DNA of 64,000 bases from Candidatus Collierbacteria bacterium (lineage in GTDB: Bacteria; Patescibacteriota; Microgenomatia; UBA1400; MFAQ01): NCBI GenBank assembly GCA_903884375.1, contig CAISER010000025.1:1637-65636 (forward strand), written 5' to 3'. Position numbers and translations under genes: made by a program. Below the pieces are notes generated by a model that saw nothing but the letters and a program-made list of their open reading frames with translations, had not been told where the DNA came from and made no database searches. Shown one piece after another: positions 22,947 through 60,315 of this stretch (within the stretch, counting starts at the first letter, position 1; the number at the start of each line of letters is the position of its first letter).

Positions 22947-25007
22947 TTAATGACGGAATCGGTGGCGGGAGAAGTGTTTCGAATTTTGAGATTTTTTTTC
23001 TTGCCGTTTTTGGTGTTTCCCAAAATTACGAAATAGATCCGGAAGATAATCTTTTAACCAATCTTTTTTTACTTCCAAGCAGGTACAAGCAAAAGTTTTT
23101 CCTTGAGGGTTGATAAAGATTTCATTGGCCACTAAGAATGAACCTTTGGATGGATAGCTGTTGAAATAGACAGAGTTGGGATGAATATAAATGTTAGACT
23201 TGGTTCCATCAACTTTTTTATAATAAAATTTATCAGACTTTTGAATTAGATTGCCAATAAGACCAGCCGTAATTGCTTGATGAATGGCATCTTTTCTGAT
23301 AATCGGCTTAGTGTTGGGATCAATATTGATTTGATGGTTGGCTAAGACAGTCAAAATATCCAAACGAACGTTTTTGGCTTCTTCAAGAACTTTTTCGTTG
23401 AAATAATTTTGTTTTGCCCAATCGTCACTGTAACCACTGGCGGCATATGCTTTCCAAATATTGAGCAGAACAATAAAATCTGAGTCGTTATTATTGATAT
23501 ATTGATCATGAGCTTTGTCAGCGAGGATTGCCTGGGCAGCTTCTTGAGGTCTGATAAATAAATTTTTCCCATCTAGAAGAGAAGCAATTATGACTATTTC
23601 ATTGACACAATTTATTTTTGGATCTAACGATTCAATAATCATGCGACCCAAACAAGGTTCTACCGCCAACTCAACTAACCAATCGCCTATTTCGGTAATT
23701 TGGCCTGATTCGTCCAAAGCACCAAGAGAAGTAAGAAGATTTAGAGCTTGAATGAGATTCTCGCTGCCTGGGTGATCCATAAAATCAAAGTTTCCAACAT
23801 TTTCGATGCCGACTTTTTTCATTGCGAGAACAACTTGGGACAAGTTGGAGCGTTGAATTTCAGGCGTTTGATACTGAGGGCGGTGTTTTAAACTTTCTTC
23901 AGTAAATAATCGATAACAATAGCCTGGTGCAGTGCGACCTGCTCTTCCTTTGCGTTGCTCTAAACCACTTATGGCGTGTTCAATAAGTTCTAACTTTTCA
24001 ATCCCGGATTTTGGATCAAACTTTGTTTGTTTAATTAGTCCGGAGTCGATAACGTGAATAACCCCATCGATAGTTACAGAGGTTTCGGCAATATTGGTAG
24101 CAATAATTATTTTTCTTTTGGGTGTAATAGTAAAAATATTGTCTTGCTCTTCTGGGGGTAGCTCTGCATGAAGAGGAAGAATTTCGACATCTGAAGAGCC
24201 CAACATTGCTTCAATTTTTTCAACTGTATCAGCAATTTCCTTTTTACCTGGCATAAAAATGAGAATATCTCCTTCGAGTTTTTGGTCGATGATCATTTTG
24301 ACTTTTTCGGCAGCGCCTTTGGTAAAGTCATAGTTGTAGGGAATTTCATTTTCGTAAAATATTTTTACGGGATACATTTTCCCAGGAATTTCAACCGAGT
24401 TATTGTTATCCTTCATGCCAATGTATTCAGCAAATCTATTCCGCTCAATAGTAGCCGAGGTAACAATGACACGAATAGGATCAACTCCAGCACCCAAACG
24501 ACGTTCGTTGACATCTTTAAGAAGTCCAAGGCAGAGATCAATGTTCAAACTGCGCTCATGAGCTTCGTCAACCATGACAATGGCGTAGTCAGTGAGCAAT
24601 GGGTCAAATTGAATTTTCCTTAATAAAATACCATCCGTCATAAAAGTAATGTCGGTGTTGTCCGTTGTCATGTCTTCAAAACGAATATGGAAACCTACCT
24701 GATCACCAACTTCACATTGCATCATTTCGGAAACACGACTAGTAACACTTCTTGTGGCGATTCTTCTGGGTTGAGTAACTGCGATTCCCCCCTTAAGTTT
24801 GAGCTCGTTTCGAAGTTCAAGGAGAAGAGGCGGTAAACAAGTGGTTTTGCCTGAACCGGTTTCTCCGATAAGAACAAAGTTTTGATGCTGTCTTATTTCT
24901 TGACGCAATAAATTTCTGAGATTGGCGACAGGAAGCCTATCCAAATTTTCAAGAGCATATTCCGACGAACAAATTTGTCGATTAATAGTATTTATTTCAG
25001 GTTTCAT
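22947..25007 (-). CDS. DEAH-box (DExH/RHA-type) ATP-dependent RNA helicase, HrpA/HrpB/Prp43-like
   Basis: motif I GETGSGKTT, motif II VMVDEAHER, motif V TNIAETSVTIDG, motif VI QRKGRAGR, followed by winged-helix/OB C-terminal region; 686 aa. Confidence 0.8.
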   Translation of the reverse strand: MKPEINTINRQICSSEYALENLDRLPVANLRNLLRQEIRQHQNFVLIGETGSGKTTCLPPLLLELRNELKLKGGIAVTQPRRIATRSVTSRVSEMMQCEVGDQVGFHIRFEDMTTDNTDITFMTDGILLRKIQFDPLLTDYAIVMVDEAHERSLNIDLCLGLLKDVNERRLGAGVDPIRVIVTSATIERNRFAEYIGMKDNNNSVEIPGKMYPVKIFYENEIPYNYDFTKGAAEKVKMIIDQKLEGDILIFMPGKKEIADTVEKIEAMLGSSDVEILPLHAELPPEEQDNIFTITPKRKIIIATNIAETSVTIDGVIHVIDSGLIKQTKFDPKSGIEKLELIEHAISGLEQRKGRAGRTAPGYCYRLFTEESLKHRPQYQTPEIQRSNLSQVVLAMKKVGIENVGNFDFMDHPGSENLIQALNLLTSLGALDESGQITEIGDWLVELAVEPCLGRMIIESLDPKINCVNEIVIIASLLDGKNLFIRPQEAAQAILADKAHDQYINNNDSDFIVLLNIWKAYAASGYSDDWAKQNYFNEKVLEEAKNVRLDILTVLANHQINIDPNTKPIIRKDAIHQAITAGLIGNLIQKSDKFYYKKVDGTKSNIYIHPNSVYFNSYPSKGSFLVANEIFINPQGKTFACTCLEVKKDWLKDYLPDLFRNFGKHQKRQEKKSQNSKHFSRHRFRH

Positions 25008-43795: not shown

Positions 43796-45454
43796 TTAAA
43801 CCTCAAGAAGAATGGCTATAACCAGAGGACGTCTTTGGGTATGATCGAAAGCAAATTTCTCAAGTTGGCCTTCAATCTTTTTTCTAATAAATCCCCAATC
43901 TGTAGCTTGACCTTTGAGATCTTTAAGACATGCATAGACATGTTTCCGAGCATCGTTTATCAACTCTTGCGATTCTTTTTGATAAACGAAACCTCTGGAA
44001 ATAATTTCAATATCTCCGGTTACCTGAGAGTTATCTCGACGCATGGGAACAATGGCCAGTAATATGCCGTCGGCGGACATGACTTGTCGGTCTCTTAAAA
44101 CAACCGTTCCAACATCACCAATACCTAAGCCATCTACGTAAACGTTTCTGGTTTCGATTTTGGGACCTTGTTTGACGATTCCTCCTTCCAATACAATGGA
44201 CTGGCCGTCGGAGAGAACAAAAACTTTTTCAGGGTCAAAGTTCATTTCTTTGGCTAGGTCTTTATAAATCATCATGTGACGAAGATTGCCGCCAATAGGA
44301 ATAATGTTTTTGGGTTTTATCAAACGGGCAAGGAGAGTTAAATCACCTCGATATCCATGACCAGAAACATGAAGATTTTCGGAAGTGCCTGAGTATGTTA
44401 CTTGAATACCTCTTTTGTAGAGAGTGTCGAGTAAATCGAAAATGTCACCTTCATTCCCGGGAATAGCATCGGAACTAATGAGTACTTTGTCACCTTTTTT
44501 TAACTTTATCTGAGTATGTTCGTCATTGGCAAGACGATGCATAGCGGAACCAACCTGGCCTTGAGAACCGGAGACAATAACCGTTACTTGGTGTGCGGGA
44601 AGTGTGGAAACTTGCTGACTTTTAATAAATATTCCTTTGGGGATTTTGATAAAACCATTTTTGGCGGCGGCTTCGACATTTTGTTCGACACTACGCCCAA
44701 TGATGGCTACACGACGATGATATTTGGCACTGGCATCGATGGCCATCTGAATACGAGAAATCGAAGAAGACATGGTAGTAAATATCATTTTGCCTTCGGT
44801 GGAGCGAACTTCACTGTCTATGGCTGTGAGTAAAGAACGTTCCGATGGACAGAAGCCGTTTTTTTCAACACGAAGACAGTCGGTAAGCATCAAGTCAACA
44901 CCGTTATTCCCGGCAACGGCCATGGCACCCATATCCGGAGGAAGATTATCTATTGGTGTTAAATCAAACTTAAAATCGGCACCATGATATACGGTTCCGG
45001 CGGGAGTTTTGATGAGAACATGAAAACAGTTGGGGACGGAGTGAGTGATATGAATGAATTCCAAGTGGAAAGGTCCAAGATTTAGAACTCCTTCAACAGG
45101 TGTCATTTTGTTAGTTATGCCAAACTCGCGAACTTTGATTTCGGCAATAGCGATAGCCAATTTGCTTCCATAAACTTCGATGCCTTTAAGACGAGGAAGA
45201 ATGTAAGGCAAACCACCAACATGATCTTGATGGGCGTGGGTTAGAACAATTCCATGAAGCTTTTTATTGGAGTGCTCAAGATAACTAATATCGGGAATAA
45301 CGGCATCGACGCCAAGGGCGTCATCTTTGGGGAAACCCATACCACAATCAATCACAATTTGATCGTTGCCATATTCATATACGTACATATTTTTGGTGAC
45401 GTCACCGACGCCTCCCAAAGGAATAATTTTTAAAGGAATTTTTTTAAAATCCAT
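43796..45454 (-). CDS. rnj: ribonuclease J (metallo-beta-lactamase/beta-CASP)
   Basis: HAHQDHVGGLPY metallo-beta-lactamase motif, beta-CASP and C-terminal domain; 552 aa. Confidence 0.9.
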   Translation of the reverse strand: MDFKKIPLKIIPLGGVGDVTKNMYVYEYGNDQIVIDCGMGFPKDDALGVDAVIPDISYLEHSNKKLHGIVLTHAHQDHVGGLPYILPRLKGIEVYGSKLAIAIAEIKVREFGITNKMTPVEGVLNLGPFHLEFIHITHSVPNCFHVLIKTPAGTVYHGADFKFDLTPIDNLPPDMGAMAVAGNNGVDLMLTDCLRVEKNGFCPSERSLLTAIDSEVRSTEGKMIFTTMSSSISRIQMAIDASAKYHRRVAIIGRSVEQNVEAAAKNGFIKIPKGIFIKSQQVSTLPAHQVTVIVSGSQGQVGSAMHRLANDEHTQIKLKKGDKVLISSDAIPGNEGDIFDLLDTLYKRGIQVTYSGTSENLHVSGHGYRGDLTLLARLIKPKNIIPIGGNLRHMMIYKDLAKEMNFDPEKVFVLSDGQSIVLEGGIVKQGPKIETRNVYVDGLGIGDVGTVVLRDRQVMSADGILLAIVPMRRDNSQVTGDIEIISRGFVYQKESQELINDARKHVYACLKDLKGQATDWGFIRKKIEGQLEKFAFDHTQRRPLVIAILLEV

Positions 45455-45697: not shown

Positions 45698-47062
45698 ATG
45701 GAAAAATTGGTGAAAGAAAGAGTGATTCGAATATTTAATTTATCAGAGGATGTTTGGCCTTTTATTGAAACGATGGGCAACAAAAAGGCAAGAATGTCGG
45801 AGATTGAGGAAAACGCAAACTTGGCCGACCGTGATTTGTTTTCAATGGCTGAGGAGTTTGAGTTTACCTTTATCACTCCCAAAAAACTGGATCCCCATTT
45901 CGTAAACTACTTTATCAAAGTTTGTATGATGCGGGAAATGGAAGTATTGGTTCCCAAAAAAAATAGTGGACTTATTTGTGAGGATATTTTGGCGGATAAG
46001 GAGATTATGAAGAGGCTTGTTAAACTGGGGAAGAGCTGTAAAAGATTGGTGCTTACCGCCTACTCTACTTCGCCATATTTTTTACACTTGGTTGGCGAGT
46101 TACGGAAAAAGGGAATTGAAGTACGAACACCAGAAGCTCCAGATGAGGCTAATGCTTGGACGGTAAATTTTTACGGAAGCAAATCGGGGATAAGACAACT
46201 GACACAGATAAACGGGGCAATTAGAGCGGACTTGAAAATGCCTAATGGAGTTGTTTCCTCGGGAGTGTTGGACTCTGCAAGGATAGCGGCAAATAAATAT
46301 ATAAAGGAAAATGGAGTAGTAATCAAAACAAACAAAGGCCACTCAGGAATGGGAGTACTTATTTTCCGTAAAGGTGATTTGCCGAAAAAATATCGAGAGT
46401 GTCAGAAAAAAATTATTGAAATATTTAACGGAGACAGTTACTGGGAAAAATTTCCGATCGTGGTGGAGTCTTTGGTAAAACCCAATCCTCGGATCGGAGG
46501 AGGTTTTCCAAATGCGGAGTTTTTGATAAAAAAAGATGGCGAGGTAAAACTTTTGTATTACTGTGGAATGCGAGTAGACGACAAGGGCGTTTTTGGCGGA
46601 GTGGAGATAGGAGAAGAAGTATTGCCTCGTCGTGTGACTTCCAGAATTACCGATATCGGTTATCTAATTGGCGAACAGTATGCCGAAGACGGTTATCGTG
46701 GTTTTTTTGATATTGATTTTATTGCCGGAAAAGGTGGAGAGATATTTGTGAATGAGTCGAATGTAAGAGTCACTGGAGGAACACATGTGTATCAAGCAGC
46801 AGTAGAACTGGCTGGGCGAGAGTTTATGAAGAAAGTCTATGTGTTGTCGAATAATAACTACGATATTCCAAACAAAAAAATCTTTACTTTCGACAGACTT
46901 CATAAACTAATGAAACCGATACTTTTTGACAGAAAAACGCGTGAGGGATTGGTGATTGCATCGTCAAATCTATTGGCAATGGGAAAACTGGCTTACATTA
47001 TTTTTGGAAAAAATAAACGTAGAGCTTTGGCCGTCGAGGAAGAGATGACGAGATTATTATAA
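45698..47062 (+). CDS. ATP-grasp superfamily carboxylate-amine/thiol ligase, subfamily unassigned
   Basis: VVIKTNKGHSGMGVLIF matches ATP-grasp phosphate-binding loop (cf. RimK VVxKPxxGSxGxGV); C-terminal FVNESNVRVTGG matches the E-x-N-x-R motif; 454 aa; only plus-strand gene in a 45-kb minus-strand block. Confidence 0.7.
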   Translation: MEKLVKERVIRIFNLSEDVWPFIETMGNKKARMSEIEENANLADRDLFSMAEEFEFTFITPKKLDPHFVNYFIKVCMMREMEVLVPKKNSGLICEDILADKEIMKRLVKLGKSCKRLVLTAYSTSPYFLHLVGELRKKGIEVRTPEAPDEANAWTVNFYGSKSGIRQLTQINGAIRADLKMPNGVVSSGVLDSARIAANKYIKENGVVIKTNKGHSGMGVLIFRKGDLPKKYRECQKKIIEIFNGDSYWEKFPIVVESLVKPNPRIGGGFPNAEFLIKKDGEVKLLYYCGMRVDDKGVFGGVEIGEEVLPRRVTSRITDIGYLIGEQYAEDGYRGFFDIDFIAGKGGEIFVNESNVRVTGGTHVYQAAVELAGREFMKKVYVLSNNNYDIPNKKIFTFDRLHKLMKPILFDRKTREGLVIASSNLLAMGKLAYIIFGKNKRRALAVEEEMTRLL

Positions 47063-47193
47063 ATATAGAATGGACCCCTCTCCCGCTCAACCAGGTTTGT
47101 TACAAAACTGGTTTCGCAATCGTCGCAAATTCCTTATGCTATGTTTTTTATAATCTGCACAAGGCATATTATGAAAAACCGGGAATTTACTCC

Positions 47194-48255
47194 TCACCAC
47201 TTTGGTAGAAATGATTTTATATTTTCGGGCGTGAGAGATATTGTCTTGGCTTGACCGGTAACAATTAATAGAGCAACTTTACGGACAATACCTTCGATCG
47301 TGCGATTTAGGGTACGAATACCGGCGTCGTAACCTAGAGGACGAATAATCATCGGCCAGAGAGCAGGGTCAATGGTAATGATTGAGGGATCCATACCGGC
47401 GGCTTCCAAAGCTTTGGGGAATAGATATTCGAGGGCAATATGAGTTTTTTCATCGTCGGAGTAAGAAGGCATTTGAATTGGTTCCAAACGATCCATAACG
47501 GCGGTCGCTAAATTGCCCGTGTTGTTGGCCGTGGCGATAAACATAACTTCGGAAAGGTCAACGGGGTAATCAATAAAGTGATCGAGAAAACGATTGTTTT
47601 GCGTTGGATCAAGAAGCTCGACCAAAACACCCATAATATCAGCTCTGGCTTCTTCGGTAACACGGTCGATTTCATCCAGAAGAATAATGGGGTTTTTAAC
47701 TCCCGTATCACAAAGAGCTCTGACCACATAACCAGGTTCGGCTTCAAGATGTAGACGAGACTGGCCACGTAAGTCTTTAGCTGAACCCAAACCTCCAAAA
47801 GGAATACGGGCAATGGGGCGGCCAAGCGCTTCAGAGAGGGCATAAGCAAAAGTAGTTTTACCGGTACCAACAAGACCAACTAAGCAAACAATCGGAGCTC
47901 TCCCCGCTCCAAGGTTTCTGGTGGTACGGAGTTTTAAGATAGACATATATTCAAGAATTCGTTCCTTGACCTCGTTCATGCCGTAGTGATTTTTATCAAG
48001 TGTGGCCTTGATAGCAGTTAAGTCAATCGGGCGTTCGACTCTTTTTGTCCAAGGAACTTTGGCAACCCAAGAAATATAGTGGCTGATTTTTTCGTATTCT
48101 TCAGAAAAAAATCCTTGGGTGGAAAGACGCTCGAGACGAGCAATCATATCAAGAGTATTTTCTTTTAACTCTGGGGGTGTTTCGATACTTTCAATTTTTT
48201 GACGAAGATCATCAAGAAGAGTATTGGCTTTTGTGGTGATTGGAGCAGGATCCAT
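47194..48255 (-). CDS. Lon-like AAA+ ATPase lacking both the Lon N-terminal (LAN) domain and the S16 protease domain
   Basis: near-collinear match to the LonA AAA+ module: YISWVAKVPWTKRVERP...LDKNHYGMNEVKERILEYM (cf. Lon LDxDHYGLExVKxRILEYLAV), Walker A GLVGTGKTT, Walker B ILLDEID, sensor/Arg-finger region; protein ends exactly where the Lon protease domain would begin. Confidence 0.75.
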   Translation of the reverse strand: MDPAPITTKANTLLDDLRQKIESIETPPELKENTLDMIARLERLSTQGFFSEEYEKISHYISWVAKVPWTKRVERPIDLTAIKATLDKNHYGMNEVKERILEYMSILKLRTTRNLGAGRAPIVCLVGLVGTGKTTFAYALSEALGRPIARIPFGGLGSAKDLRGQSRLHLEAEPGYVVRALCDTGVKNPIILLDEIDRVTEEARADIMGVLVELLDPTQNNRFLDHFIDYPVDLSEVMFIATANNTGNLATAVMDRLEPIQMPSYSDDEKTHIALEYLFPKALEAAGMDPSIITIDPALWPMIIRPLGYDAGIRTLNRTIEGIVRKVALLIVTGQAKTISLTPENIKSFLPKW

Positions 48256-48367
48256 AGTTTCATTATATCCGTTTTAAAAAATACTTAGATCAGAATAAAT
48301 CACACACTCTATCTAAGAAAAGGATCTTTATCGAGGATATTATTAAATAGGGCTGCTGTTAATTTTA

Positions 48368-49363
48368 TTATCGAATATTGTAGGTTGGTGGCTTAGTGCT
48401 GCCGCTACCGGTGTTAATTCTGCACAAACTATCGTTAGTACAAGTGCTTTTAGGACATGTTGAGCTAATATTGACAGTTTTTGATATTGATTTACAAAGA
48501 TTGTTACTACATGTTTTGTAAATACAAACTTTTGTGTTTGCCACTCCTGATCCCACTGTCGAGCATTTACATGTAATGCTCCCATCTTTACAGGTACACA
48601 CTCTGCTCTTTGATTGTCCTGTTCCACAACCTAATGATGCCGGACAATTACCGGAACATTGATTATATGATTGACCGCTGGCAAAAGTATAACCATCACT
48701 GGTAGTGCAAGTGCCAGGCTTAATGATGGTACCGGCACAAGTATTATCATTTGAGCCTTTGCATGTACTAGTAGGACAGGTCGAACTTTGTTTAAAGGTC
48801 ATGTTATATGACTTACACTGACCCTGATAACACTGGGACCATTTACATTCTTTAGTCCCTGAGGGAACGGGCTCTTTATCGGCTATGCATTGGCCGACTG
48901 CGGAACTGGCGGTATAGTTTAAGGCAATTTTTCCATTACCACAGTGATAACCAGAGCAACACTGCCGGACATCATTCCAAGAAAAAACTCCACAGTGTCC
49001 ACCTTCTTCCACACACCTATTTGAAGTTGGTCGAGGTTTTTCAGTGCAATTCGATGGTTTACAGCTCGCGGTAAACGCTCTGCTCTCGCCTCCACCAGTG
49101 TAAGCGCAAATTTCTCCGGTTTTGCAGCCACCTTCCCAACCACATTTATTTGCGGTTGCCAGGCTGCTGCCACAAGTAACGTTTGCCGCTGCTGGTTCAC
49201 TTTCTGGAGCATTGGGGGCTACGGCTTGTCTGGCAGTTAATTGAGCAGCAATAAAAAGAACGGCACCAAGAATAGCAGCAAAAATTAAGACAGGAAAAAA
49301 CTTTTTCAAAAAAGGATTAGTATGCTGTTTGACAATCGTCTTCTTGGGCATCTTCTTGGCCAT
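48368..49363 (-). CDS. membrane-anchored, extremely cysteine-rich extracytoplasmic protein (about 32 Cys in about 270 residues, Thr/Ser/Gly-rich, repeated S-T-C-P-x-S-T-C-like units)
   Basis: Lys-rich N-terminus, one TM/signal-anchor (FFPVLIFAAILGAVLFIAAQL), then Cys-rich domain; locally GC-richer than surroundings; no bacterial family recognised. Confidence 0.7.
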   Translation of the reverse strand: MAKKMPKKTIVKQHTNPFLKKFFPVLIFAAILGAVLFIAAQLTARQAVAPNAPESEPAAANVTCGSSLATANKCGWEGGCKTGEICAYTGGGESRAFTASCKPSNCTEKPRPTSNRCVEEGGHCGVFSWNDVRQCCSGYHCGNGKIALNYTASSAVGQCIADKEPVPSGTKECKWSQCYQGQCKSYNMTFKQSSTCPTSTCKGSNDNTCAGTIIKPGTCTTSDGYTFASGQSYNQCSGNCPASLGCGTGQSKSRVCTCKDGSITCKCSTVGSGVANTKVCIYKTCSNNLCKSISKTVNISSTCPKSTCTNDSLCRINTGSGSTKPPTYNIR

Positions 49364-49499: not shown

Positions 49500-51677
49500 T
49501 TAACGAGAGTCTCTAAAATTGCGGAAGTTTGGACGACCACCACCTCTTTGACCGCCTCGATCACCACCGCCAAATCTTGGCCTGTCTCCTCCGCCACCCA
49601 TAGGTCGCTGTGCTCTTATTGGTTCCTCGCCTTCTTTGAGCATGGTGAGATTTACGCGACCCATGGAGTCTACTTCGTAACATCTGACTTCAACTTTGTC
49701 GCCGATTTTCATTGTTTTGAAAACTTCTGGTTGGACTTGGGAAATATGAACTAAACCATCTTTCCCCGGAAGAATATTGACGAATGCGCCAAAAGCTTCA
49801 ACTCTAGCAACAGTACCTTGATAGGTCATGCCAACTTCGGCTTCGGCAACAATGGAATCAATGAAAGCTCTGGCTGCATCTACCTTGGATTGATCTGTAC
49901 CGGTAACGGTAACAGTACCATCATCTTCGATGTTGACTTCAACTAAGAAATCATCTTGGATTTGGTGAATGATCTTGCCACCTGAACCAATAACGTCACC
50001 AATCTTGGCAACCGGGACTTTGGTGGAAACAATTTTAGGAGCGTACTGAGATAGTTTTTCGCGTGGAACAGAAATGGATTCGACCATGAGGTCTAGAATC
50101 TTCATTCTGGCACGTTTGGCTTGTTCAACAGCTTGGGTTAGGACTTCGGCTTTGATACCCGTAACCTTGACGTCCATTTGGAGAGCGGTGATACCGTCTT
50201 TGGTTCCAGCGACTTTGAAATCCATGTCACCTAGGTGATCTTCGAGACCACAGATGTCGGTGAGGGTGACAAAATCTTTGCCTTCGGTAATTAGTCCCAT
50301 GGCAGTACCGGCAACAGGTTTTTTAATTGGAACACCAGCGTCCATGAGAGACAAGGTAGAACCACAAATTGAGGCTTGAGAAGTAGAGCCATTTGAAGAC
50401 ATAACTTCAGAGACAACACGAATGGTATACGGGAAAACGGCGGTGTCTGGAAGGACAGGAACCAAGGCTCTTTCGGCAAGATTCCCATGACCAATCTCAC
50501 GGCGACCTGTACCTGGGCGACCAACTTCACCGGCTGCGTAGCCTGGCATGTTGTAGTGATGCATATAGCGCTTGGTGGTTTCACCCTTCATACCATCGAT
50601 AAGCATTTCTCTGGCTGGAGAAGCTAGAGTAACAACCGAAAGTACATGAGTAAGTCCTCTTTGGAAAAAGGCAGAGCCGTGAGTACGAGGAAGCAAACCA
50701 ATCTCGATATTGATAGGGCGAATATCCTCGATTCCACGTCCGTCTGGTCTGGTTTTGGTTTCGAGAATGGTTTTTCTAGCCTCGTCACGAAGCATATGAT
50801 CAGCGGTTTCGGCAATGTGACTAGCATTGTATTCTGGATGAGCGGCGATAATGCCGTCGACGATTTCTCTAGCTTGGATTCCAGTTTTGGTAGCTTCGTT
50901 TTTCAAGATTACTTGAAGATCTCCAATTTCGGCGCTAACAAACTTTTTAATTTCAGAATCTATAACGATTTCAGGGATAGTACGTTTGGCTTTGCCGTTT
51001 TCTTTGGCAAATTTGTCAATTCCTTCGGCAATGATGTCGACATATTTTTGAGCGTAGGCAAGGGCGCCGGTCATCTTTTCTTCGGAAACTTCATTGGCTC
51101 CGGCCTCAACCATACAAATGCCCCCCTTAGGACCAGAAACGACAAGATCGAGAGGAGAAACAAGCTTTTCTTGCTCATTTGGGTTGATGATGTACTCACC
51201 TTCTGGGGTCATACCAACACGAACAGCACCAACCGGTCCGGCCCATGGATAGTCAGAAAGAGATACAGCAGCTGAAGAAGCAATAATGGCTAAAATTTCT
51301 GGCTCTTCGACTCCATCGATGGAGAGAGGATAAGACATGATCTGAACTTCATTTCTTGAAGCTTGATCAAACAAAGGACGGAGAGAGCGATCGATCACAC
51401 GACCAACAAGGATTTCACCTTCTGAAGGACGTCCTTCACGTTTTATAAAACGACTGGAAGAAATAACTCCACCTGCGTAGAATTTTTCTTGGTAATCAAT
51501 GGAAAGAGGAAAATAATCAATTCCTTCTTTAACTCTGTTTGTGGCTACTACTGAAGCAACAACTATAGTGTCGCCGCATCTTGCAGTAACAGAACCTGAG
51601 GCCTGGGCACCAAAACGGCCGGTTTCGATTGTAATTGTTTTACCATTGAGAACAATGGTAGTTTGAGGATGTGTCAT
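49500..51677 (-). CDS. pnp: polyribonucleotide nucleotidyltransferase (PNPase) with C-terminal RGG/Gly-Arg-rich tail
   Basis: two RNase PH domains, KH and S1 domains; start set at ATG MTHPQTTIV preceded by AAAGGA (ORF-track start 51704 is GTG); C-terminus GGGGDRPRFGGGDRGGQRGGGRPNFRNFR. Confidence 0.93.
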   Translation of the reverse strand: MTHPQTTIVLNGKTITIETGRFGAQASGSVTARCGDTIVVASVVATNRVKEGIDYFPLSIDYQEKFYAGGVISSSRFIKREGRPSEGEILVGRVIDRSLRPLFDQASRNEVQIMSYPLSIDGVEEPEILAIIASSAAVSLSDYPWAGPVGAVRVGMTPEGEYIINPNEQEKLVSPLDLVVSGPKGGICMVEAGANEVSEEKMTGALAYAQKYVDIIAEGIDKFAKENGKAKRTIPEIVIDSEIKKFVSAEIGDLQVILKNEATKTGIQAREIVDGIIAAHPEYNASHIAETADHMLRDEARKTILETKTRPDGRGIEDIRPINIEIGLLPRTHGSAFFQRGLTHVLSVVTLASPAREMLIDGMKGETTKRYMHHYNMPGYAAGEVGRPGTGRREIGHGNLAERALVPVLPDTAVFPYTIRVVSEVMSSNGSTSQASICGSTLSLMDAGVPIKKPVAGTAMGLITEGKDFVTLTDICGLEDHLGDMDFKVAGTKDGITALQMDVKVTGIKAEVLTQAVEQAKRARMKILDLMVESISVPREKLSQYAPKIVSTKVPVAKIGDVIGSGGKIIHQIQDDFLVEVNIEDDGTVTVTGTDQSKVDAARAFIDSIVAEAEVGMTYQGTVARVEAFGAFVNILPGKDGLVHISQVQPEVFKTMKIGDKVEVRCYEVDSMGRVNLTMLKEGEEPIRAQRPMGGGGDRPRFGGGDRGGQRGGGRPNFRNFRDSR

Positions 51678-51706
51678 CCTTAAATCCTTTCTTTTTCGCG
51701 CCACCC

Positions 51707-60288: not shown

Positions 60289-60315
60289 TTAGCAGTACTA
60301 TATCATGAGTGATAA
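60289..60315. promoter_or_regulatory. CIRCE-like HrcA operator: TTAGCAGTA-N9-GAGTGATAA (consensus TTAGCACTC-N9-GAGTGCTAA), 15/18 arm positions match with the canonical 9-nt spacer
   Basis: ttagcagtactatatcatgagtgataa read directly; overlaps -10 of the putative hrcA promoter; nested in a longer TTATCACTC...GAGTGATAA inverted repeat. Confidence 0.65.

Follow-up and report, generated by a model that had tools for sequence, protein, structure and literature searches.

Lon proteases of the LonA type (endopeptidase La; MEROPS S16; TIGR00763), such as those of Meiothermus taiwanensis, Escherichia coli and Bacillus subtilis and human LONP1, combine an AAA+ alpha/beta core with a Lon-type lid and preceding helices. 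According to a recent review, all Lons are single chains that hold both the ATPase and the protease domain (PMC9569914). LonC of M. taiwanensis is described as a Lon-like protease in which the protease domain is retained and the AAA-like module is inactive (PMC3391209, PMC13069640). In M. taiwanensis LonA (MtaLonA), Tyr397 and Trp431 of the pore loops touch the translocating chain and are needed for degradation (PMC8503904). In this study, we analysed a stretch of 64,000 nucleotides (nt) from contig CAISER010000025.1 of a Candidatus Collierbacteria bacterium (hereafter the window, 64 kb), which harbors on its minus strand an ATG-to-stop open reading frame (ORF) of 353 amino acids (aa) at 47194-48255 (stop codon 47194-47196) that encodes a Lon-type AAA+ ATPase without a protease domain. 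Like LonC, the protein is a member of the Lon family in which one of two activities was given up in evolution. However, it is the mirror image of LonC, with an apparently competent ATPase and no protease domain. We consider it reasonably probable (roughly 0.62) that this protein is a non-proteolytic, ATP-driven remodeller or holder, and thus chaperone-like, that derives from Lon; this estimate covers the class of activity and not the client.

The domain content of the protein is confined to the ATPase module. Only AAA (PF00004; residues 123-260; E 6.6e-16) and Lon_lid (PF22667; residues 285-337; E 6.9e-8) were matched in Pfam, and neither the LAN domain (PF02190) nor the S16 peptidase domain with its Ser-Lys dyad (PF05362) gave a Pfam match in the 353-aa protein. 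The NCBIfam model TIGR00763 ('lon') was matched over model positions 250-571 of 795 only, with 307.2 bits versus a cutoff of 608.05, and a second curated Lon model, NF008053, scored 229 bits versus a cutoff of 891 and thus stayed below its equivalog cutoff. A scan with hidden Markov models (HMMs) gave a marginal similarity to a ClpA-type model (E 5e-5). Solved LonA and LONP1 structures were matched at E ~1e-68 (phmmer), whereby query residues 14-334 correspond to residues 246-561 of the 793-aa MtaLonA, and the alignment of the PDB sequence search is collinear without an inserted loop. The original prediction had described a Lon AAA+ module that lacks the N-terminal and S16 domains, starts after the LAN domain and ends at the AAA+/protease boundary, and the HMM and PDB alignments agree with it on all of these points. 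The LonA-type motifs that it had quoted were also found, namely VAKVPWTKR with the VPW-K element, the HYGM-type stretch LDKNHYGMNEVKERILEYM, Walker A GLVGTGKTT and Walker B IILLDEID. The C-terminus (...NIKSFLPKW) falls at the AAA+/protease linker, where the counterpart in B. subtilis Lon (...NLQDFIGK) stands just ahead of the protease domain.

Three parts can be distinguished in the protein. The N-terminal helical part (residues 1-112; 47920-48255, minus strand) corresponds to the last stretch of LonA's helical region together with the bundle of helices in front of the AAA+ core, without the LAN beta-domain. It is followed by the alpha/beta core and by the Lon-type lid or small alpha subdomain (residues 263-353; 47197-47469, minus strand), to which the Pfam Lon_lid match belongs and which holds the sensor-2 arginine and the C-terminal FLPKW. 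An AlphaFold2 model (mean predicted local distance difference test, pLDDT, 86.9; predicted template modelling score, pTM, 0.81) places N-terminal helices at residues 5-23, 28-44, 50-66, 79-89 and 94-112, ahead of the core and the helical lid, and its best Foldseek matches are the AAA+ modules of LONP1 and bacterial LonA (template modelling score, TM, 0.80-0.89). A comparable chain is the AAA+ fragment of E. coli Lon (PDB 6N2I, 344 aa), to which query residues 16-350 align over chain positions 13-339 with TM 0.85/0.88. However, that fragment was engineered by truncating a full protease and has canonical pore loops, whereas the 353-aa protein is a natural, conserved gene product. The likeness to LonA comprises a mean identity of ~38% over the module, the collinear alignment and the predicted fold. 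On the other side, the absence of LAN and of the S16 Ser-Lys domain, the bit score at half the cutoff, the altered pore loops and the position in a separate clade set the protein apart. It fails the LAN, the S16, the score-cutoff and the pore-loop-aromatic tests and is not to be filed as a Lon protease.

For the analysis of the catalytic residues, the family was mapped onto MtaLonA numbering, in which Y397, W431, R484 and R541 fall where PMC8503904 puts them. K133, D194/E195, N244, R256 and R314 are invariant in an alignment of 121 close and 15 distant protease-less members and are identical to the LonA residues of Walker A, Walker B, sensor-1, the Arg finger and sensor-2. All lie on the minus strand. 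Walker A occupies residues 127-135 (47851-47877) and includes Lys133; it reads GLVG instead of GPPG, with 'LV' in place of the 'PP' of LonA (GPPGVGKT). Walker B covers residues 190-197 (47665-47688) with the D194/E195 pair. Sensor-1 Asn244 (47524-47526) and the trans-acting Arg finger Arg256 (47488-47490) lie within 47488-47526, and sensor-2 Arg314 is encoded at 47314-47316. As judged from this alignment, the ATP-binding and hydrolysis site of the protein is intact, including the Arg finger that acts in trans.

The pore loops, in contrast to sensor-2, do not follow LonA. An alignment with LonA had been proposed as a check on the intactness of both elements: the sensor-2 arginine has been kept throughout and the pore loops have been rewritten. 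Pore-loop 1 of LonA reads RGHRRTY(I/V)G(A/S)(M/L)PG, and its counterpart in the 353-aa protein is RGQSRLHLEAEPG (residues 163-175; 47731-47769, minus strand), in which Tyr-(Ile/Val)-Gly is replaced by His-Leu-Glu and the three substitutions are Tyr to His169, Gly to Glu171 and Met to Glu173. In pore-loop 2, RVTEEARADIMGV (residues 198-210; 47626-47664, minus strand), Ala203 takes the place of the LonA aromatic residue, which is Trp431 in MtaLonA and Phe or Tyr in most others, and 'RGDP' has become 'RADI'. Among LonA representatives, the pore-loop-1 Tyr is present in 55/55 and the Gly in 52/55. The equivalent of Tyr397 is His in all 119 close relatives and is variable (S, N, V, Y, A, F and others) in the rest of the protease-less clade. 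The equivalent of Gly399 is Asp or Glu, and that of Met401 (Met or Leu in LonA) is Glu in 246 of 251 protease-less sequences. An acidic signature, (D/E)-x-E-P-G, is shared across the clade. Loss of the pore Tyr was considered as a family-defining trait and was found to be too strong a statement: it is true of the Microgenomates-like subfamily with its invariant His, and not of the Dojkabacteria-like set, where some position of pore-loop 1 is still aromatic in 62 of 117 members. Given its strong conservation within the Microgenomates-like subfamily, pore-loop 1 has been re-purposed and is not decaying.

The short form of the protein is conserved. An identical protein is encoded on two independent metagenome contigs. 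In a search of 5.8 billion proteins, the best 120 relatives showed 66-93% identity and lengths of 310-455 aa (nearly all ~351-357 aa), and all of them contained AAA and Lon_lid only, with Lon_C or LAN in none. At the level of the loci, the stop codon of the homologue lies 0-7 residues from the query end in 91/91 cases and at the identical position in 77 of them, so that full-length Lon was found neither among the best relatives nor at these loci. The C-terminal motif [FY]LPx[WY] is common across these 91 loci; it is conserved among close relatives and not in the wider protease-less clade. When genomes of GTDB (one per species) were scanned with two family-specific peptides, relatives were detected in at least 568 species genomes. 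Named genomes among the matches listed are those of Collier-, Woese-, Shapiro-, Chisholm-, Cerri-, Gottesman- and Beckwithbacteria and of the 'Microgenomates group'. Compared with 20 orthologues of 79-89% aa identity, the ratio of nonsynonymous to synonymous substitution rates (dN/dS) was 0.04-0.10; synonymous sites are near saturation and these ratios are therefore approximate and probably overestimates. The gene is under strong purifying selection. Both the constancy of the short form and its dN/dS had been named as checks, and both support the claim of a bona fide standalone Lon-derived ATPase, as do the retained catalytic residues.

The same architecture extends to distant relatives. A search that started from a 40%-identical member (P0168) returned only AAA plus Lon_lid proteins of 342-507 aa, with the names Dojkabacteria, Nomurabacteria and Patescibacteria group. 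Neighbour joining over 326 columns split the 75 protease-less sequences from the 57 full-length LonA representatives in 99/100 bootstraps; identity averaged 52% inside the protease-less clade and 38% to LonA. Cluster look-ups put names to few of the representatives; among the full-length LonA representatives with a name, the nearest come from Eubacteriales and Deinococcus and not from the Candidate Phyla Radiation (CPR). On this sequence comparison, the protease-less form is one old, vertically inherited LonA lineage that is characteristic of Patescibacteria (CPR). Many related loci (L012, L015, L016, L023, L025, L048 and others) carry titles such as 'uncultured Pseudomonadales', 'Gammaproteobacteria', 'Spirochaetia' or 'Bathyarchaeia'. 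Such titles of metagenome-assembled genomes are probably placeholders or mis-assignments, as gene order and protein similarity point to Microgenomates/Patescibacteria. The search for representatives also yielded the series P0121-P0136, proteins of 900-1700 aa in which two or three Lon-type AAA+ modules stand in tandem ahead of one Lon_C domain. These are either Lon proteins of an unusual multi-AAA type or products of fused gene models.

A protease or LAN domain was searched for in the window and in the 10-kb flanks of the homologues. Queried by tblastn with S16 and LAN domains taken from four full-length LonA proteins, the whole window gave noise only (E > 1), and nothing was found at E <= 1e-5 in 1.47 Mb within 10 kb of 91 homologues. 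Apart from a sortase, no peptidase genes were detected in the 64 kb. The original prediction of a 131-nt gap, a convergent gene and no adjacent protease proved accurate: the spacer (47063-47193), which runs from the stop codon to the 3' end of a convergent ORF of 454 aa, has no protease-domain coding potential. A protease domain hidden downstream or in other frames, for instance behind a sequencing error in the spacer, is ruled out, as there is neither room nor frame for it and the tblastn searches were negative.

Taken together, the following mechanism is suggested. In its descent from LonA, the protein has retained the final N-terminal helices along with the AAA+ core and the lid, and it has lost the substrate-binding LAN and the S16 peptidase domains. 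The subunits would assemble into a ring and hydrolyse ATP; this is most likely because the invariant Arg finger acts across subunit interfaces. The His-Leu-Glu that is invariant among close relatives, together with the further Glu, would give the ring an acidic pore, with Ala in place of the pore-loop-2 aromatic. Since there is no proteolytic chamber and the canonical aromatic-hydrophobic-Gly motif is replaced, substrates are probably not threaded for degradation. More likely, the ATP-driven ring remodels or holds a specific client, possibly a basic one, and the RNA-decay and translation machinery would be the first place to look for it, given the position of the gene after pnp and before rnj. 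Of the earlier wording 'unfoldase or chaperone', the standalone ATPase stands, whereas an unfoldase is doubtful in view of the changes from Tyr to His and from the aromatic to Ala. A precedent for a Lon ATPase module that works without proteolysis may be seen in proteolytically inactive yeast Pim1/Lon and in LONP1 with mtHsp70, for which protease-independent chaperone activity has reportedly been observed; in these cases, however, the protease domain is still there and the pore loops are canonical.

Several points weigh against this interpretation. That the protein forms a ring, hydrolyses ATP and has a specific client is deduced from its sequence. The closed hexamer of LonA depends in part on its protease domains, and a module that lacks them may adopt another assembly or require a partner. 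The aromatic residue kept in pore-loop 1 by part of the Dojkabacteria-like set is a further point, as some members of the wider clade may have remained able to translocate polypeptides, and even His169 could serve to grip a substrate. A distant S16, ClpP or HslV gene could lie outside the searched stretches. In addition, the nusA-infB-rpsO-pnp...rnj-ftsK block is collinear across related genomes and includes the functionally unrelated ftsK; the synteny with RNA-decay genes is thus a lead and says little on function.

The two neighbours in question are the gene of polynucleotide phosphorylase (PNPase; 49500-51704, minus strand; Pfam RNase_PH twice, KH and S1), the ancestral upstream neighbour, and that of RNase J (rnj; 43796-45454, minus strand; Pfam Lactamase_B, RNase_J_b_CASP and RNase_J_C), the ancestral downstream neighbour. 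In the window, both are separated from the ATPase gene by insertions. Between pnp and the ATPase gene lies a Cys-rich ORF of 331 aa (48368-49363, minus strand), which has a hydrophobic segment in its N-terminal part and matches nothing in Pfam; it had no tblastn match in 80 GTDB loci, and no ORF stood at the same position in the gene tables read. On the other side, the convergent 454-aa ORF (45698-47062, plus strand) is inserted ahead of rnj. In Pfam it reached no more than a sub-threshold match to PGM1_C (C-terminal part of ATP-grasp peptide maturases), and it was found in ~18 related loci, most of which belong to the nearest, Collierbacteria-like relatives. In relatives these flanking insertions are often absent, and the ATPase gene then lies directly between pnp and rnj with gaps down to 16-22 nt. 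Overall, PNPase was encoded upstream on the same strand in 61/84 loci (gap <=150 nt in 32; median stop-to-start gap 103 nt) and RNase J downstream on the same strand in 66/84 (gap <=150 nt in 22; median gap 767 nt). Both neighbours were present in 52 of the 80 GTDB loci.

It is tempting to speculate that the ring is an accessory ATPase of RNA decay that works with PNPase and/or RNase J in a minimal CPR degradosome, either by engaging the basic Arg/Gly-rich PNPase tail through its acidic pore loops or by remodelling ribonucleoprotein substrates. We regard this as rather unlikely. It is favoured by the frequent same-strand linkage to pnp and rnj with many short gaps and by the depth of this linkage, as the order pnp-X-(udg)-rnj-ftsK (X being the ATPase gene) is kept around a ~40%-identical member labelled Nomurabacteria and X-rnj around a 51%-identical one. 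PNPase tails point in the same direction: the PNPase C-terminus in the window (49500-49640, minus strand) is a basic Arg/Gly-rich tail of ~45 aa (...GGGGDRPRFGGGDRGGQRGGGRPNFRNFRDSR), and R/G/K-rich tails of 15-110 aa were found in 41 of 61 PNPases adjoining ATPase homologues, a count that covers only genomes that carry the ATPase gene. On the other hand, the adjacency may be inherited gene order, given that the whole nusA...ftsK block is collinear, and the linkage is broken in several lineages: one locus has four intervening genes and no rnj, one has unrelated neighbours, the gene of a Dojkabacteria member lies elsewhere, and neither neighbour occurs in 4/80 loci. An acidic pore also argues against direct threading of RNA. 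Finally, a strong terminator-like hairpin with an 11-bp stem follows directly after pnp (49469-49445, minus strand), and because this hairpin and the two insertions separate the genes in the window, co-transcription with pnp or rnj is not obligatory.

Further signals around these genes were noted. Behind the pnp hairpin and ahead of the Cys-rich ORF, a promoter-like site matches 10 of 12 positions (49437-49410, minus strand), and a perfect TATAAT is found ~6 nt upstream of the ATPase start codon (48256-48270, minus strand), with no obvious Shine-Dalgarno sequence; the ATPase mRNA may thus be leaderless or have a very short leader. In the promoter and terminator scan, promoter-like sites occurred in the window at chance frequency, and the hairpin after pnp was the only notable feature.

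Another possibility is that the protein is the ATPase half of a split protease, in which the ring docks on a standalone S16, ClpP or HslV encoded elsewhere and feeds it with substrate. ClpX and HslU, which belong to the HCLR clade like Lon, are stand-alone AAA+ polypeptides and would offer a model of function should there be a distant peptidase, separate ATPase and peptidase subunits being the rule in ClpXP and HslUV. Both have aromatic pore loops and peptidase-docking elements (an IGF loop or a C-terminal tail). The [FY]LPx[WY] C-terminus of the close relatives could be such a docking tail, and the domain searches reached no further than the window and the 10-kb flanks, which leaves space for a distant partner gene. 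However, no S16 or LAN domain was found in all of this sequence, there is no insertion compared with LonA that could serve for IGF-type docking, the pore loops have exchanged the residues on which translocation relies, conservation of the C-terminal motif does not extend to the wider clade, and no report of a split Lon was found in a literature search. Hence, we consider a split protease improbable.

A similarly long shot is the view that Patescibacteria have no proteolytic Lon at all and that their ancestral lon was turned into a non-proteolytic AAA+ ring, the acidic pore of which engages the basic PNPase tail or other basic RNA-binding proteins. If this were true, the ring would use ATP to regulate or organise a minimal RNA-decay machine of PNPase and RNase J, and it would represent the first AAA+ degradosome component as well as the first natural Lon without a protease. 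The remaining explanation, that the gene is a decaying lon remnant or that a sequencing or assembly artefact cuts off the protease domain, as a non-coding gap followed by a convergent gene can make it appear, is refuted by the identical protein on independent contigs, the constant ends in relatives, the purifying selection, the invariant catalytic residues and the deep monophyletic clade.

The wider context is that of housekeeping genes. Read in the direction of transcription of the ATPase gene (minus strand), the window begins with lepA, a GH39-like gene on the plus strand and hrcA-grpE-dnaK-dnaJ, followed by nusA, infB, a 304-aa ORF of no assigned function, rpsO, pnp, the Cys-rich ORF and the ATPase gene. 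After the convergent 454-aa ORF come rnj, ftsK and a RodZ-like helix-turn-helix gene, and then alaS, the sortase, ruvX, yceG, two ORFs of 1168 and 1235 aa, a DEAH helicase, fusA and tuf. The two long ORFs are taken as rpoB and rpoC from size and position alone, and a run of short same-strand ORFs after tuf stands, again by position alone, where a ribosomal-protein cluster is expected. The helicase is DEAH/HrpA-like (DEAD, Helicase_C, HA2 and OB_NTP_bind; 22947-25007, minus strand) and lies just upstream of fusA, with the 1168-aa and 1235-aa ORFs further upstream. Neither Rfam elements nor tRNAs were detected in the window. In a related genome, a RVT_1 reverse transcriptase beside a bAvd-like or Polbeta-like small gene was observed between rnj and ftsK (L008, 13492-15418; L009, 9068-10526), an arrangement that looks like a diversity-generating retroelement.

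Two other roles were considered for the ATPase and rejected. A single inverted repeat resembling the controlling inverted repeat of chaperone expression (CIRCE) was found in the window, with 3 mismatches, at 60289-60315 just upstream of hrcA-grpE-dnaK-dnaJ; no CIRCE-like element lies near the ATPase gene within the window, and heat-shock regulation of this kind was dismissed. A function in anti-phage defence was likewise discarded, as PADLOC gave only a weak generic AAA match (DolB; E 8.7e-6, 23 bits) and the context is one of housekeeping genes.

Full-text literature searches turned up no account of a LonA module that naturally lacks the protease, whether in CPR or in other organisms. Relatives are labelled in databases as 'ATP-dependent Lon protease' or 'Lon protease' (JGI and older GenBank entries) or as 'AAA family ATPase' (NCBI). 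The first label is wrong as to activity and the second is uninformative, and metabolic reconstructions that count the protease-less form as Lon overstate the proteolytic capacity of the organisms that carry it. For specialists in Lon and AAA+ proteins, a widespread patescibacterial Lon clade in which the motor was kept and the protease lost should come as a moderate surprise. In summary, a deep and species-rich clade has retained only the Lon motor, with its catalytic ATPase residues long preserved and its substrate-gripping pore rebuilt, and thus offers AAA+ research a natural experiment on a Lon motor without a chamber. For the Patescibacteria, it prompts one to ask how organisms with tiny genomes and a reduced toolkit handle protein quality control and, perhaps, the decay of RNA.

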